Of a stretch of 6,545 nucleotides of DNA, positions 2,339-6,421 are shown piece by piece. A model generated the notes under the pieces. That model was not told the DNA's origin. It searched no databases and was given only the letters and a program-made list of their open reading frames with translations. This DNA comes from a virus (Duplodnaviria > Heunggongvirae > Uroviricota > Caudoviricetes): IMG/VR virus record IMGVR_UViG_2585427789_000011. One strand, written 5' to 3'. The stretch's first letter is position 1; every line of letters begins with the position of its first letter. Position numbers and translations under genes: made by a program.

Positions 2339-3418
2339 TTAAGAATCAGCCTGACTCGGGATCAGTTTTTGCCAGATAACTGAAACGTATTTTGCCTGGT
2401 AACGGGCGTCATCAAGTGCATTATGGCGCTCACCTTCGAATGGAATAGCCGTTCTGGCATCGAAGTCTATGGCTTTCCCCAGCTCAACGATTGTGCGTAC
2501 ATCGCGATCGTTGTAGTAACGCCACGGGCAGGGGATCCCCTGCCGTTCGTATGAACGGCGCAAAATCGTGTTGTCGAAGTTGGCTCCATTTCCCCAAACC
2601 TGAACAAAAAATTCACCGGAGTTTTCGTCGATAAATTCCCGCAATTGTAACAGTGCATCATCTAACGGGATTTCATCGGTCATAATGGCAGATTGCGCTT
2701 CGCGTGATTGCTTAAGCCACCATTTAATGGTGTCCCGATCAATGACTCCGCCAGCAGTTTCCAGATCGATAGTCTTACTAAATTCCGGTCCCATATCTCC
2801 GGTTTGCGGATCGAAAAATATTGCACCTATTGAGATGATCGGGGCATCAGGATTTTTTCCCATGGTTTCAAGGTCGATCATTAGATGGTCACACGTCCTG
2901 CTGGTGGATGTGATTTCGTGATGACCGTTCACCTTAATTGAGTGATCTGCCGTCTCGCCAGTTTCATTATCGCTATTGTGATGCTGATTGCCGCCAGTGT
3001 TCTCCTTGTGTGGATGTTCAGCGCCTTCCATTTCCTCCGGATCATCTTCCTGAACTTCAACCTGATACTCTTCATCGAATGTTTCTTGGTATGTTGCGTC
3101 GCCCATCACCGCGCCACAATCAGGGCAGTTGCCGCCGCCGGTCTGACCGCAGGCGGTGCAGACTTTTTCCACTTCCTGTTGCACCACTGGTTCAGGCTGT
3201 TTCGTTTCTGGCTCGTTTTGTAACGCATTTGGGCTGTTTTGTTCCGCTTTCTGGTAGTTCCGTTCCGATTCATGCTGGTTCTGGTTCACAGAATCGCGGG
3301 TCTGGATCCCCTTAACCCATTTCGGATCATTCGGGTCACTAATCCCTTCAACAAATTCACCACGTGATGCAGCAAGCAACTTATCGGCGTCAGGCTGGCT
3401 GATATTGGCTGCCTGCAT
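2339..3418 (-). CDS. DnaQ-like DEDDh 3'-5' exonuclease-domain protein with an acidic, Cys-containing N-terminal region; 5' boundary uncertain
   Basis: C-terminal 190 aa carry Exo I (MIDLETMG), Exo II ([12 protein letters not shown]) and Exo III ([13 protein letters not shown]) motifs. N-terminal half is Q/E/D-rich with a [16 protein letters not shown] zinc-ribbon-like cluster. The track ORF extends to 3652, but the first 78 codons overlap the upstream gene and look non-coding; the ATG at 3418-3416 is the first start downstream of the upstream gene's stop, with a weak SD. Confidence 0.7.
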
Positions 3419-3434
3419 AATTTTGTTTACTTCG

Positions 3435-3779
3435 TCAGCGGTAACTTTTACCGGCTCTGGCTGTGCGGTCTTCAGAGGCACCAACATTTTGCGGTAAACC
3501 CGAGTATGTACCATTTTTGCGGGCAAAATATTCTTCTTTCGTGATTTCAGTAGCCCCAGCAGCCAGCGCCTTATCCAGACCAGAAAGTTTGTTTGCGCGA
3601 CCGTATTTTTCGCCATCCTTATCGGCGAAGAGGAAATAGAACGGCCCCTCACGCTCTACAGATGGTTCAACTTCCACCGCGCATTCAGTTTTTGCGATAT
3701 CAGATACCCGTTTCCACTGCATCAGTTTCTGGTACTGACGACGAGAGAACATCAACAGCGCCCAGATCTCTTCCTTCAT
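3435..3779 (-). CDS. Hypothetical protein (114 aa from the ATG at 3779; the track ORF begins at a GTG at 3788)
   Basis: ORF 3435-3788, translation ...[90 protein letters not shown]... with balanced composition. Its 3' part overlaps the long exonuclease-frame ORF. No recognisable family. Confidence 0.5.
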
Positions 3780-3799
3780 CTCAAACACGCCCTTTGTAG

Positions 3800-4804
3800 T
3801 CAGGTATTCGCAATATATTTGTTCAGTGCCACAGGATCTTTGTGAATGTCGATCGGACGCTCACGGACAAGGCCAAAAATAGTCTGGCGGTCGTAGCGAA
3901 GGGCATCAGGCTGTTTGCGCATCGATGCCGAGATACGCTTCCAGTCTTCGCGGTCGTTGTCGATAACTTCATTTTTTGCCCAGCGATGGATGCTGCCGTC
4001 AATGTTTCCGGCATCCACATCACCAGGCCAGAGAGCGTAGGCCAGTTCGTCATCCAGTGTTTTCCATGTCTGCTTGTATTCGCGATGAATGGCAGCAATG
4101 ACCGGGCTGATTTTTCCTGTTGAATTTTCAGTGTACTGTTGATTGGCTCTGGCGCGGGCGAGATCAACAACAGACGTGTATTTTCCGGTTTCCTTGCGTT
4201 CACCTTCGCGACGTTTTTTCCAGATGCGCATCTCTGCCTGAATTTCGGGCCATTTGGCACTAGGAATACATTTATGCTTAACCCACCCGATGGCATGCAG
4301 CTTAAGCTCCGGATACATGGCGTTAACTTCTGGCATTTTCATCAACGCTTCAACGATATGTCCGTCGAATGTTGCCATGTCTTCCTGCAACAATTCCTGC
4401 GCGCTAATCACCATATCAACGGTGATGTTTTCACATGTACCGAACTTAACCAGGACCGCGTTCTGTACTTCAAGGGACAGCTTGTCAAAATTGACGATCA
4501 TCGGATCGGATTCTGGTTCGACCGGGACAAAGGAAGCGCCTTCCTCATCCCAGCGGTTTTCCAGCATATATTCGGTATCCCAGGAGTCGATGGCAGGGCG
4601 GGGCATGCCGGGTTTATCCTCGCAGACAAGAAATTTATAAGCGCAGTCCTGAGCAGCCGGATATTGCTCCAGGAATTGCCAGGTAAATTTGGCACGGGCG
4701 CGACGTTCGTCGCCGGCTTCAATGGCAGTGGCTACAGCGACTGCACCTTCTTCCTTTATTGCCTGTTCGTCCGGAATGGCGGCGCAAATAAAGACTTTAC
4801 TCAT
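3800..4804 (-). CDS. Hypothetical prophage protein, 334 aa (sits where ydfE lies relative to ydfD/dicB in K-12 Qin, by recall)
   Basis: Long ORF with protein-like composition (MSKVFICAAIPDEQAIKEEG...), GAGG about 11 nt upstream of the ATG, same strand and tight spacing with flanking genes. The antisense 230-aa ORF is F/H/C-rich and looks spurious. No motif recognised by eye. Confidence 0.7.
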   Translation of the reverse strand: MSKVFICAAIPDEQAIKEEGAVAVATAIEAGDERRARAKFTWQFLEQYPAAQDCAYKFLVCEDKPGMPRPAIDSWDTEYMLENRWDEEGASFVPVEPESDPMIVNFDKLSLEVQNAVLVKFGTCENITVDMVISAQELLQEDMATFDGHIVEALMKMPEVNAMYPELKLHAIGWVKHKCIPSAKWPEIQAEMRIWKKRREGERKETGKYTSVVDLARARANQQYTENSTGKISPVIAAIHREYKQTWKTLDDELAYALWPGDVDAGNIDGSIHRWAKNEVIDNDREDWKRISASMRKQPDALRYDRQTIFGLVRERPIDIHKDPVALNKYIANT

Positions 4805-4884: not shown

Positions 4885-5088
4885 TTACGGTGCTGTTTTA
4901 AGTCCTGCCGGGATTTCGTTATTATCCATGTGAATAACTTTATCGACCGGATAACAGTTACCGGGAATTTTCTGTTCCGCTGCGGCAACCATGCATTCTT
5001 TCATTGAGCCGTATACGCCAGTAACCATGTCAACCGGTTCACCGGAAACAAGAAAAACCGTCAGAACAAGTGCAAATGTAGTATTCAT
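4885..5088 (-). CDS. ydfD: YdfD-like small membrane protein (prophage lysis-type protein), 67 aa
   Basis: Translation MNTTFALVLTVFLVSGEPVDMVTGVYGSMKECMVAAAEQKIPGNCYPVDKVIHMDNNEIPAGLKTAP has an N-terminal hydrophobic segment. Start ATG 5088-5086 overlaps the dicB TGA stop (ATGA), with AAGGA 8 nt upstream. Identity by position immediately downstream of dicB and recalled Qin gene order. Confidence 0.65.
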   Translation of the reverse strand: MNTTFALVLTVFLVSGEPVDMVTGVYGSMKECMVAAAEQKIPGNCYPVDKVIHMDNNEIPAGLKTAP

Positions 5089-5273
5089 TGCCAGCATCCT
5101 TTTTGCATCAGGCGTAAACGGGCCAGCATTGAAACAATGCATATTTTATTTAATAGCTCCCGTTCTTGTTTTCTCTTGTTAATGGCATCTTCAGTAAATA
5201 CTGGGTTACTGATAGTGACACCAATTTCAAAACAACCTTCAGACGTATTAACGTTTGGTAATAACGTTTCCAT
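5085..5273 (-). CDS. dicB: Cell-division inhibitor DicB (activates MinC-dependent inhibition of FtsZ), 62 aa
   Basis: From the ATG at 5273: METLLPNVNTSEGCFEIGVTISNPVFTEDAINKRKQERELLNKICIVSMLARLRLMQKGCWQ, near-identical to recalled K-12 DicB (MKTLLPNVNTSEGCFEIGV...). GAGGA SD at 5281-5285, 7 nt upstream. The track's longer ORF (to 5345) is an in-frame upstream extension without an RBS. Confidence 0.85.
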   Translation of the reverse strand: METLLPNVNTSEGCFEIGVTISNPVFTEDAINKRKQERELLNKICIVSMLARLRLMQKGCWQ

Positions 5274-5290
5274 TATCGCGTCCTCAACAA

Positions 5291-5446
5291 TGAATTTTGT
5301 GATGCGGCGCCTGGTGCCTCCAGGTGACGTTAACCAGTAAACCATTAACGCCGGATTGTTAGTTGATGTCTGTTACGCAAGTAAAAGACCGCTTGTTTTA
5401 ACTGTTCCGCGTGCGCTGAGCCGCATTCACCGCATCACAAAATTCA
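5291..5446 (-). promoter_or_regulatory. 17-bp perfect long-range inverted repeat in the dicF-dicB spacer; candidate RNase III processing duplex or translational control structure in the dicB 5' UTR
   Basis: Plus 5291-5307 (TGAATTTTGTGATGCGG) is the exact reverse complement of plus 5430-5446 (CCGCATCACAAAATTCA). One arm abuts the DicF terminator, the other lies 6 nt upstream of the dicB SD. A 17-mer repeat is not expected by chance in 6.5 kb. Confidence 0.45.
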
Positions 5447-5450
5447 CTTT

Positions 5451-5493
5451 AAAAGGGGCGGGTATCACGGGAAAAACAAAACGAATACCCGCC
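5451..5493 (-). terminator. Intrinsic terminator forming the DicF 3' end
   Basis: 9-bp stem GGCGGGTAT (5457-5465) / ATACCCGCC (5485-5493) with a 19-nt loop, followed on the minus strand by CC-UUUU. Confidence 0.55.
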
Positions 5494-5509
5494 AAAAGGT
5501 AATCAACAT
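5451..5509 (-). ncRNA. dicF: DicF-like small regulatory RNA (Hfq-dependent inhibitor of ftsZ and other targets in K-12), variant sequence
   Basis: Minus-strand sequence CAUGUUGAUUACCUUUUGGCGGGUAUUCGUUUUGUUUUUCCCGUGAUACCCGCCCCUUUU lies about 180 nt upstream of dicB, matching the recalled K-12 dicF-dicB spacing of about 185 nt. It shares the UUUGGCGG...GUUUU...CCGUGA...GCCGCCC-UUUU pattern with recalled K-12 DicF. The 5' end is set by analogy, not determined. Confidence 0.6.
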
Positions 5510-5790
5510 GGGTTGTTGTAGCGGAGTTGTCACTCAGGCGTATGGTCAACCTGACAACCCGGTGTCCTCAACGGGGAAGGAATAACCCCGCCATACTTAC
5601 CGCCGCGCCATTTCGCGGAGTGCCACAACCGGAAGCGCACGGTCGACGAAAATTTAACGACAGGCTATCTATGAACCAGCAACCTCGCCGTGCGCTTTCG
5701 CGTTATGCTCTGACTTTTCAGAGAAATATCCTTTCAGTAAACTGTCAGTGCCGGATGTTCACCCGTGGAGAACTCCTTAATTACCAACCC
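5509..5790. other. G+C-rich, hairpin-dense non-coding segment (candidate structured RNA or regulatory/recombination region); strand unknown
   Basis: About 60% G+C by hand count over 5521-5640, against AT-rich flanks. Perfect stems at 5526-5532/5552-5558 (7 bp), 5572-5576/5586-5590 (5 bp), 5603-5607/5614-5618 (5 bp) and 5633-5642/5688-5697 (10 bp, 45-nt spacer). No minus-strand ORF longer than about 15 codons; the only plus-strand ORF is Arg-rich with rare Arg codons. Confidence 0.4.
5715..5743 (+). promoter_or_regulatory. Weak candidate sigma70 promoter for the 77-aa gene
   Basis: TTTTCA (5715-5720), 17-bp spacer, TAAACT (5738-5743); 4/6 match to each consensus hexamer. Flanked by short repeats CTGAC/GTCAG and CTTTTCAG/CTTTCAG. 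By-eye call only. Confidence 0.2.
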
Positions 5791-5802: not shown

Positions 5803-6036
5803 ATGTTAAAATCAACTCTTATTGCTAAATGCCTTTATCAAAATCGCATGGTAAGCAGCATTTCAATAGGCGAGTCTGCAGTTAAAAGTATTTTCGAAGA
5901 GTACTTTTCCGGGCATGATTTTAATAAATGGAATACCAAATTACCGCCAGCAGTTTCAACGCGTATTCTGAAAGCAACTGAAAGAGCAAGTACAATTCGC
6001 GTTAACTATTTCATTAAAGATTTGTGGGATCTTTGA
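5803..6036 (+). CDS. Hypothetical small protein, 77 aa, transcribed opposite to the dicB operon
   Basis: ATG 5803 preceded by AGGAGG (5793-5798, 4-nt spacer); AT-rich coding sequence MLKSTLIAKCLYQNRMVSSISIGESAVKSIFEEYFSGHDFNKWNTKLPPAVSTRILKATERASTIRVNYFIKDLWDL; no similarity recognised. Confidence 0.55.
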   Translation: MLKSTLIAKCLYQNRMVSSISIGESAVKSIFEEYFSGHDFNKWNTKLPPAVSTRILKATERASTIRVNYFIKDLWDL

Positions 6037-6421
6037 TATCCACAGAGCCTAAAGTATGTGCATATGGATGTGCTATTGTGCGCCCTCGCAGATTTGCATC
6101 ATTTTCTAAATTCACTGAACGAAACAGGGCATCAACAAGGCTCTGTACAATGCAAAGGCAATCGAAGACTGTCGCCGTTTCTGTTTTGATTGATGAAAGA
6201 ACATGGCCATTCACGCAAACAGAAATTACCCGTTTATTAACATCGCTTTCCTGCTTTTGATTATCAGAACCATATAGCCCAGAAAAAGCATTGCGCACAT
6301 TACGAACCATATTATCGATGGTTTCTTTTTTGGTGTATGCCGGGTCAATTTTCACCAGACTATCACCGAGTGTCGTTGCAGCAATTATCTGGATTTCTTT
6401 TGGTAAATCTTTAAATTCCAT
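6014..6421 (-). CDS. Hypothetical protein, 135 aa, convergent with and overlapping the 77-aa gene by 23 nt
   Basis: ATG 6421 with GAGG 7 nt upstream; translation MEFKDLPKEIQIIAATTLGDSLVKIDPAYTKKETIDNMVRNVRNAFSGLYGSDNQ... protein-like; no HTH or other motif recognised. Not DicA-like despite the same length. Confidence 0.6.
   Translation of the reverse strand: MEFKDLPKEIQIIAATTLGDSLVKIDPAYTKKETIDNMVRNVRNAFSGLYGSDNQKQESDVNKRVISVCVNGHVLSSIKTETATVFDCLCIVQSLVDALFRSVNLENDANLRGRTIAHPYAHTLGSVDIKDPTNL

Follow-up and report, generated by a model that had tools for sequence, protein, structure and literature searches.

A diverged allele of the dicF slot upstream of dicB in a Qin-like prophage arm: a probable terminator-derived small RNA

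The stretch of DNA analysed here (6,545 nt, IMG/VR record IMGVR_UViG_2585427789_000011, hereafter the window) carries on its minus strand a hairpin element that occupies the position of dicF, upstream of dicB, with a sequence lying outside the Rfam DicF family. In our reading, to which we assign a probability of about 0.7, this element is an allele, here named class B, of a terminator-derived sRNA cassette that is DicF in the Qin prophage and KilS in the Rac prophage. Its position, the homology of its flanks, the hairpin, the allele classes of the slot and the loss of DicF-type complementarity were all observed in the sequences compared. By analogy, the element most likely works like DicF and KilS, as a terminator-derived and probably Hfq-dependent prophage sRNA placed before a division-inhibitor gene.

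The element runs, 5' to 3' on the minus strand, from nt 5510 to nt 5451 (CAUGUUGAUUACCUUUUGGCGGGUAUUCGUUUUGUUUUUCCCGUGAUACCCGCCCCUUUU); the interval 5451–5509 given in the preliminary description does contain the sequence, and misses one base at its 5' end. As deduced from sequence and fold, the hairpin and U tract (nt 5493–5451) consist of a 5' arm GGCGGGUAU (nt 5493–5485) and a 3' arm AUACCCGCC (nt 5465–5457) enclosing the U/C-rich loop UCGUUUUGUUUUUCCCGUG (nt 5484–5466), followed by CC and by a UUUU tract (nt 5454–5451). The two arms form a perfect stem of 9 bp, or of 12 bp counting up to three further inner pairs, and the loop measures 19 nt, or 12 nt when two inner pairs are formed. The predicted folding energy is −16.8 kcal/mol, with z = −3.57 against dinucleotide shuffles. 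The hairpin is preceded by the 5' lead CAUGUUGAUUACCUUUU (nt 5494–5510, minus strand), a "type-2" 5' module recognised in two alignments with K-12 (A1 and A2) and in the table of slot alleles, where it is common to class B and to most class C alleles.

The window represents the left arm of a Qin-like lambdoid prophage adjoining rspB. On the basis of translations and of the annotation of homologous records, the gene order is ydfC-slot-dicB-DUF1482-exonuclease-xis-int, with int at nt 700–1995, xis at nt 2015–2266, a split exonuclease gene at nt 2339–3652 and 3800–4804, a gene for a small DUF1482-family protein after dicB, at the ydfD position (nt 4885–5088, by translation and homologous loci), dicB itself at nt 5085–5273 and the start of ydfC at the window end, all on the minus strand. 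The dicB gene codes for a cell-division inhibitor of 62 aa (METLLPNVNTSEGCFEIGVTISNPVFTEDAINKRKQERELLNKICIVSMLARLRLMQKGCWQ), annotated as DicB in homologous records, and its start (nt 5273) lies 178 nt downstream of the hairpin 3' end (nt 5451), matching dicF in K-12. The reading frame of the exonuclease gene (nt 2339–4804, minus strand) changes at about nt 3650–3800, leaving two ORFs of 437 aa and 334 aa; since homologous records have a single exonuclease gene of about 2470–2480 nt in this place, the prophage arm looks defective. Two ORFs of 135 aa (nt 6014–6421, minus strand) and 77 aa (nt 5803–6036, plus strand) are found between ydfC and the slot. The K-12 Qin prophage has neither of them, but records of related prophages (E400634, FDAARGOS_1077) list both as hypothetical proteins.

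Aligned to K-12, the upstream leader (nt 5511–5640, minus strand) is 93.5% identical, the 60 nt beyond the U tract 96.7% and the dicB-proximal part 94.3%, and the core, that is the element itself, is 47.8% identical and 9–10 nt shorter. Near-identical flanks around a diverged core point to a dicF slot in which, judging from these alignments, the inner cassette has been replaced.

The K-12 DicF sequence used as reference in the preliminary description proved exact (NC_000913, dicF, nt 1649382–1649434, UUUCUGGUGACGUUUGGCGGUAUCAGUUUUACUCCGUGACUGCUCUGCCGCCC), and the motifs listed there as shared, namely UUUGGCGG, GUUUU, CCGUGA and CCGCCC followed by a U run, were all retrieved. Calling the element DicF-like is correct as regards position and descent, the slot and the flanks being the same, and incorrect as regards membership of Rfam family RF00039 by score. 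The terminator region had also been described as conserved, which overstates the likeness: only the GGCGG/CCGCC clamp and short motifs at the loop edges are common to the two cores. Nor is the divergence restricted to the 5' segment, as the stem top and the loop are replaced too. In particular, the upper stem is made of GUAU/AUAC in the window allele and of UA plus CAGU/ACUG in DicF, the loop has 19 nt (or 12 nt) against 11 nt, and the U run counts four residues against five in K-12 DicF. The replaced stem top and loop correspond to the part of DicF that pairs with ftsZ and pykA.

The covariance-model search suggested as a check gave no RF00039 match in the window, either at the gathering threshold (48 bits) or at E ≤ 10 in 400-nt slices (nt 5300–5700 and 5150–5530), whereas K-12 dicF, used as control, reached 76.7 bits. 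At gathering thresholds no Rfam family at all matched in the window. The preliminary description had itself named the lack of a significant match as a refutation; this applies to membership of the DicF family, and the homologous position stands. On other alleles of the slot the model scored below threshold (28.6–43.5 bits), with 43.5 bits for class A2, 39.1 for KilS and 34.1 for class C (classes described below), and it gave no score on class B loci; class B is therefore the slot class furthest from DicF.

The difference previously reported at the 5' end is real, but it consists of an indel and not of a block of substitutions (alignments A1 and A2). In both alignments the window sequence CAUGUUGAUUACC (also CCAUGUUGAUUACC) faces K-12 CUCUGUUAUCAAU, a precursor sequence located upstream of the 5' end that RNase E produces in mature DicF, so that the 13 nt originally compared are not homologous positions; on this alignment, the "5' 13 nt" of the element are probably not the counterpart of the DicF seed. 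Indeed, about 9 nt of the DicF 5' tail (seed CUGGUGACG) have no counterpart in the window, and the single-stranded tail of about 14 nt, UUUCUGGUGACGUUU, which in DicF holds the xylR-pairing seed, is absent from the window allele, where the type-2 lead replaces K-12 CUCUGUUAUCAAU plus UUUCUGGUGACGUUU in a form 9–10 nt shorter. The element is thus an allele without the DicF seed, as opposed to one with a mutated seed. Since the "5' 13 nt" match precursor sequence upstream of the RNase E site, the mature RNA may have a short or different 5' tail. Having neither a scoring match to the family model nor the seed, the element stands outside Rfam DicF.

In K-12 dicF (nt 683–705 of the excerpt analysed), the 5' tail UUUCUGGUGAC resembles the GUUUGGCGGUA that follows it and starts its own hairpin. 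This repeat, seen twice in K-12 dicF, is present in one copy only in the window (nt 5485–5497). The DicF seed may have originated from a partial tandem duplication of the hairpin 5' arm, or class B from its deletion.

Alleles of the slot were collected by exact-pattern scans on the conserved flanks, performed on IMG/VR and on one genome per species, and from E. coli loci selected by BLAST. Twenty-nine distinct hairpin alleles were recovered, each folding as a hairpin followed by a U tract, and the GGCGG-stem-loop-CCGCC-U tract arrangement is retained in 29 out of 29. They fall into canonical DicF, KilS and at least three other hairpin classes. Class A is canonical DicF, and class A2, found for example in E. 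albertii, joins the DicF 5' tail to a different hairpin (GGCGGCAUCUGUUUGCCCAUGAACUGAUGUCCGCC). Class B, the type of the window, is built as GGCGGGUAU-loop-AUACCCGCC and includes seven further loop variants. Class C has the hairpin GGCGGCAUCAG-UUUCAUUGCUGG-CUGAUGUCCGCC, preceded by several different 5' leads, and KilS of the K-12 Rac prophage (ncRNA b4833) ends with GGCGGCAUCAG-UUUUUUUCUUGAAGUUCGG-CUGAUGUCCGCC-UUUUU and continues into the flank AAAGUGAAUUUUGUGAUGCGGUGAAUGCGG.

Loops differ freely between and within classes, with U-run lengths of 4–7 among the class B loop variants; the stem clamp and the U tract are constant across alleles, and no allele class departs from GUUU at the 5' loop edge. 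Covariation support for the hairpin is weak: one covarying stem pair (U-A in class B; C-G in class C, KilS and A2) was found with a hand-specified structure, and RNAalifold recovered from the allele alignment only the five invariant clamp pairs. The 5' modules and the hairpin modules occur in differing combinations, which indicates recombination between them.

Of 5426 complete E. coli genomes, 4614 have the flanked region, with roughly 11,000 slot places in all, and 216 (about 4%) have a member of the class B family, defined as 75–100% identity to an 86-nt query; an unbiased IMG/VR sample gave 4 class B loci out of 119. The exact allele of the window is carried by E. coli FDAARGOS_1077 (NZ_CP068155.1, nt 311054–311139) and E400634, and ETEC B7A is also a carrier strain. 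The gene that follows a class B allele is dicB or, in certain prophages, kilR, a division-inhibitor gene being present in every context seen. In the pattern scans, the slot turned up only in Escherichia and Shigella, leaving aside some MAG contigs with obvious contamination. The latter, labelled as Veillonella parvula, Candidatus Nanosynbacter, Collinsella and "Proteobacteria bacterium", hold exact E. coli dicF/kilS slots and probably result from binning contamination. One complete phage genome has a class B allele, located upstream of kil: PP818812.1, deposited as "Actinobacillus phage vB_Apl-pPE4", which is the sole INPHARED record with such an allele (92.9% identity). Its stated host, Actinobacillus pleuropneumoniae, looks doubtful; the dicA/ydaT/kil/exonuclease VIII module in the record is of a kind typical for E. 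coli. In the Shigella flexneri sequence CP182556.1 (excerpt nt 3236–3424), matches above threshold to isrK (61.5 bits) and to the C4 antisense RNA (75.7 bits) were located about 250–400 nt downstream of a class-C-like slot allele with a KilS-type lead, so that several prophage sRNA genes are clustered there.

A broader interpretation, which we put forward as tentative and rather less likely than not, is that the slot is a modular, hypervariable sRNA cassette of Escherichia lambdoid prophages, with DicF and KilS as alleles of one locus and class B as a distinct regulator with host targets of its own. Between near-invariant processing flanks, both the 5' module (DicF seed, type-2 lead, KilS-type lead and others) and the hairpin-loop module (of DicF, KilS, class B, class C or A2 type) would be exchangeable. 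If so, different prophages would reprogram the host differently from the same operon position.

In K-12, DicF derives from the dicBp transcript, in which RNase III cuts the leader to give a 190-nt species (PMC10448788) and RNase E then generates the 53-nt species, whose 3' end is the terminator (PMC10448788, PMC5069750). The corresponding upstream leader of the precursor, which in K-12 carries the RNase III site (PMC10448788), is conserved in the window at nt 5511–5640 (minus strand), as seen above by alignment, and promoter prediction for the minus strand gave no sigma-70-like site from ydfC to the hairpin, a result fitting with processing from an operon transcript. By analogy, these two findings would make DicF-type processing the most economical assumption. 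In the structure predicted for the 190-nt precursor, CAUGUUG is paired to an upstream CAACA and AUUACCUUUU is left single-stranded before the hairpin, where an RNase E cut would be expected.

Termination, processing, Hfq dependence and action in trans are what we infer for the class B allele, in the following order of events. The Qin-like early-left operon (ydfA-ydfB-ydfC-orf135-slot-dicB and following genes) would be transcribed from a repressor-controlled promoter outside the window, and the hairpin with its U tract (nt 5493–5451) would stop part of the transcription about 180 nt before dicB. RNase III would cut the conserved leader and RNase E the AUUACCUUUU segment just 5' of the hairpin, leaving, as for DicF, a stable RNA of about 45–55 nt ending in the terminator. 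This RNA would act in trans through its U/C-rich loop of 12–19 nt. As the allele has no DicF 5' seed and no complementarity of its 3' half to ftsZ and pykA, xylR and pykA would not be regulated, and ftsZ would be repressed weakly if at all.

Pairing with the DicF targets was evaluated by adding to the hybridisation energy the cost of unfolding the sRNA and the mRNA (accessibility-corrected duplex score, with W the length of the sliding window on the sRNA). The background consisted of the 143 translation-initiation regions (TIRs) annotated in three 50-kb segments of K-12 (150 kb). With DicF as control, xylR ranked 1/143 (W = 16), pykA 6/143 (W = 16) and 2/143 (W = 28), and ftsZ 3/143 (W = 28), in agreement with the published targets (PMC5069750). 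The window allele ranked xylR 129/143 and pykA 113/143 (both at W = 16), and ftsZ 9/143 at W = 16 and 23/143 at W = 28. In these models the DicF-type interactions with xylR and pykA are lost; a changed target set, as supposed in the preliminary description, is thus plausible, and the targets of the window allele are probably different from those of DicF.

Functionally the element could still be a DicF, with a loop that blocks ftsZ translation and inhibits division together with DicB, a reading we judge somewhat unlikely. What speaks for it is the loop segment GUUUUUCCCG (nt 5468–5477, minus strand), which can form 10 bp, with one bulged A, with ftsZ CGG(A)GAGAAAC at positions −12 to −2 (Shine-Dalgarno/spacer), the same site contacted by the DicF loop through AGUUUU/CUCCG. 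At W = 16, where ftsZ ranks ninth, the hybridisation energy is −11.3 and the total −8.0 kcal/mol, against a short-window value of −5.3 kcal/mol for DicF; the invariance of GUUU at the loop edge in all allele classes and the division-inhibitor gene (dicB or kilR) found downstream in every context point the same way. However, shuffled loops pair with ftsZ equally well or better 75% of the time (P = 0.75, in a loop-only test of limited power, given that canonical DicF itself obtains P = 0.084), and by hybrid energy alone ftsZ falls to 35/143. Moreover, at W = 28, the setting that places ftsZ third for DicF, the window allele reaches only the 23rd rank with a total of −1.8 kcal/mol, because the extended pairing of the DicF 3' half with ftsZ −29 to −17 is lost. 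The other class B variants pair worse with ftsZ, which they rank 28th–45th of 143, and a U/C-rich loop matches purine-rich ribosome-binding sites generally. As modelled here, the residual match to the ftsZ ribosome-binding site would be at the chance level for such a loop and, being no better than shuffles and worse in the other variants, it gives no positive support for any specific target.

As to termination, the element shows the G+C-rich stem followed by a U-rich tract typical of intrinsic terminators. A consensus terminator scan did not list the site, because its loop exceeds 8 nt and it has fewer than five U; the four-U tract, the long loop and the scan result make the efficiency of termination uncertain, and termination may be inefficient. 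In addition, the leader segment GGCGGUAAGUAUGGCGGGG (nt 5604–5586, minus strand) can pair with the hairpin 3' half (nt 5457–5471; CCCGUG.AUAC.CCGCC) in an alternative long-range helix. By constrained folding, the long-range conformer of the window has −63.1 versus −64.1 kcal/mol for the terminator conformer, and that of K-12 −76.0 versus −69.5 kcal/mol, being favoured there by 6.5 kcal/mol. The helix may serve in anti-termination or be cut by RNase III.

Such an arrangement, in which the hairpin 3' half can pair with a conserved leader segment, is found in attenuator designs, and it would suit an element that is a mere intrinsic terminator or attenuator, limiting the expression of the toxic dicB and of the genes downstream, with no RNA acting in trans and with the differences between alleles due to drift or recombination. 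The constancy of the stem clamp and U tract in all alleles, next to loops free to vary, and a target complementarity never above chance are also in line with this reading, which we nevertheless regard as unlikely. The module by which sRNAs normally bind Hfq is just such a terminator hairpin ending in a U tail, and large U-rich loops of 12–19 nt, conserved within a class, are unusual for plain terminators. Furthermore, DicF and KilS, the two characterised alleles of the slot, both accumulate as sRNAs associated with Hfq, and their targets were validated or detected by RIL-seq, the sequencing of RNA-RNA interactions among Hfq-bound RNAs (PMC5069750, PMC8175672).

Two last readings are highly improbable. 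An ordinary copy of DicF (RF00039), sharing locus and flanks with the K-12 gene and seeming to differ owing to a faulty K-12 reference sequence, is refuted by the exactness of that sequence, the 47.8% identity of the core and the missing model match versus 76.7 bits in K-12. A small protein, encoded by a 40-aa ORF (nt 5427–5549, minus strand) or a 48-aa ORF (nt 5356–5502, plus strand), both present in the mechanical ORF list, and with one phage record annotating an opposite-strand hypothetical protein that partly overlaps the homologous place, is rejected on account of frame-breaking indels between alleles (60, 63 or 64 nt between the flanks in class B, differences that are not multiples of three), and none of the E. 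coli records examined has a gene called there by PGAP, the NCBI annotation pipeline.

A second hypervariable patch was observed within the dicB leader, at about nt 5345–5392 (minus strand), where identity to K-12 drops to 21% and many variants occur across loci. The idea that the hairpin loop co-varies, or pairs in cis, with this patch was dropped, since the patch variants are unlinked to the hairpin class.

DicF is a textbook prophage sRNA, and its presence is usually scored by sequence identity or by the Rfam model, to which non-canonical alleles of the slot are invisible. As class B escapes the model, surveys of DicF conservation miss about 4% of the E. coli genomes, which carry a different RNA in the same place. 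If the alleles are functional, they would offer a natural experiment in the evolution of sRNA targets, in which promoter, processing signals and downstream toxin gene are shared, and seed and loop differ. The positional equivalence of DicF and KilS, which we did not find stated in the literature searched, would also join two separately named K-12 sRNAs in a single family; our search retrieved no paper naming KilS and DicF together and none containing the class B allele sequence. An earlier description may exist: Faubladier and Bouché (1994, J Bacteriol 176:1150) possibly described dicF-like sequences, one of them in Rac.

Among known systems, DicF itself has the identical place in the genome: the ydfC-side leader and the dicB 5' UTR border its slot, with flanks 93–97% identical. 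DicF and the window allele have in common a GGCGG...CCGCC hairpin that runs into a U tract, the GUUUU and CCGUGA motifs at the loop edges and a brief match to the Shine-Dalgarno region of ftsZ. By analogy, a similar size and biogenesis would be expected for the window allele.

KilS of the K-12 Rac prophage (b4833; Bar et al. 2021) has been verified by northern blot and detected by RIL-seq, with yncL as RIL-seq partner and a promoter of its own reported as possible (PMC8175672). At NC_000913.3 (nt 1418405–1418502, minus strand) it lies in the DicF slot: its terminator is of the GGCGG...CCGCC-U5 design, the flank that follows is identical, and kilR lies beyond it. Terminator and flank both align with the slot of the window; the place relative to the division-inhibitor gene, there kilR, is the same, as is the downstream flank AAAGUGAAUUUUGUGAUGCGGUGAAUGCGG. 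The clamp-hairpin-U tract design and the U-rich loop are common to both, and some class B alleles are themselves upstream of kilR. On the contrary, the 5' part of KilS, of about 45 nt and ending with GUAAAUAACGACAUUGCUGUGUGUAGUCCU, is different, the window allele having a Qin-type leader, and the KilS stem (CAUCAG/CUGAUG) and loop (UUUUUUUCUUGAAGUUCGG) also differ from those of the window allele. Given its different 5' part and loop, the element is not KilS either.

A likeness to STnc100 was found in the structured dicB 5' UTR (nt 5296–5444, minus strand), the dicB/kil leader, and not in the hairpin RNA. The Rfam STnc100 model (RF02076) scored this region below threshold, with 29.9 bits (E = 7e-5) for a gathering score of 47, and gave 34.1 bits for the K-12 dicB leader and 28–40 bits over K-12 and the loci of the other alleles. 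In Salmonella, STnc100 may correspond to the dicB/kil leader.

Finally, a general class of terminator-derived Hfq sRNAs arises through RNase E processing of operon transcripts (PMC9438474). The predicted biogenesis of the window allele would be the same as that of these 3'-end-derived sRNAs, with a longer mRNA being processed and the terminator serving as Hfq-binding module. Members of this class derive from the end of an mRNA, whereas the terminator of the class B element is internal to the operon, upstream of dicB.
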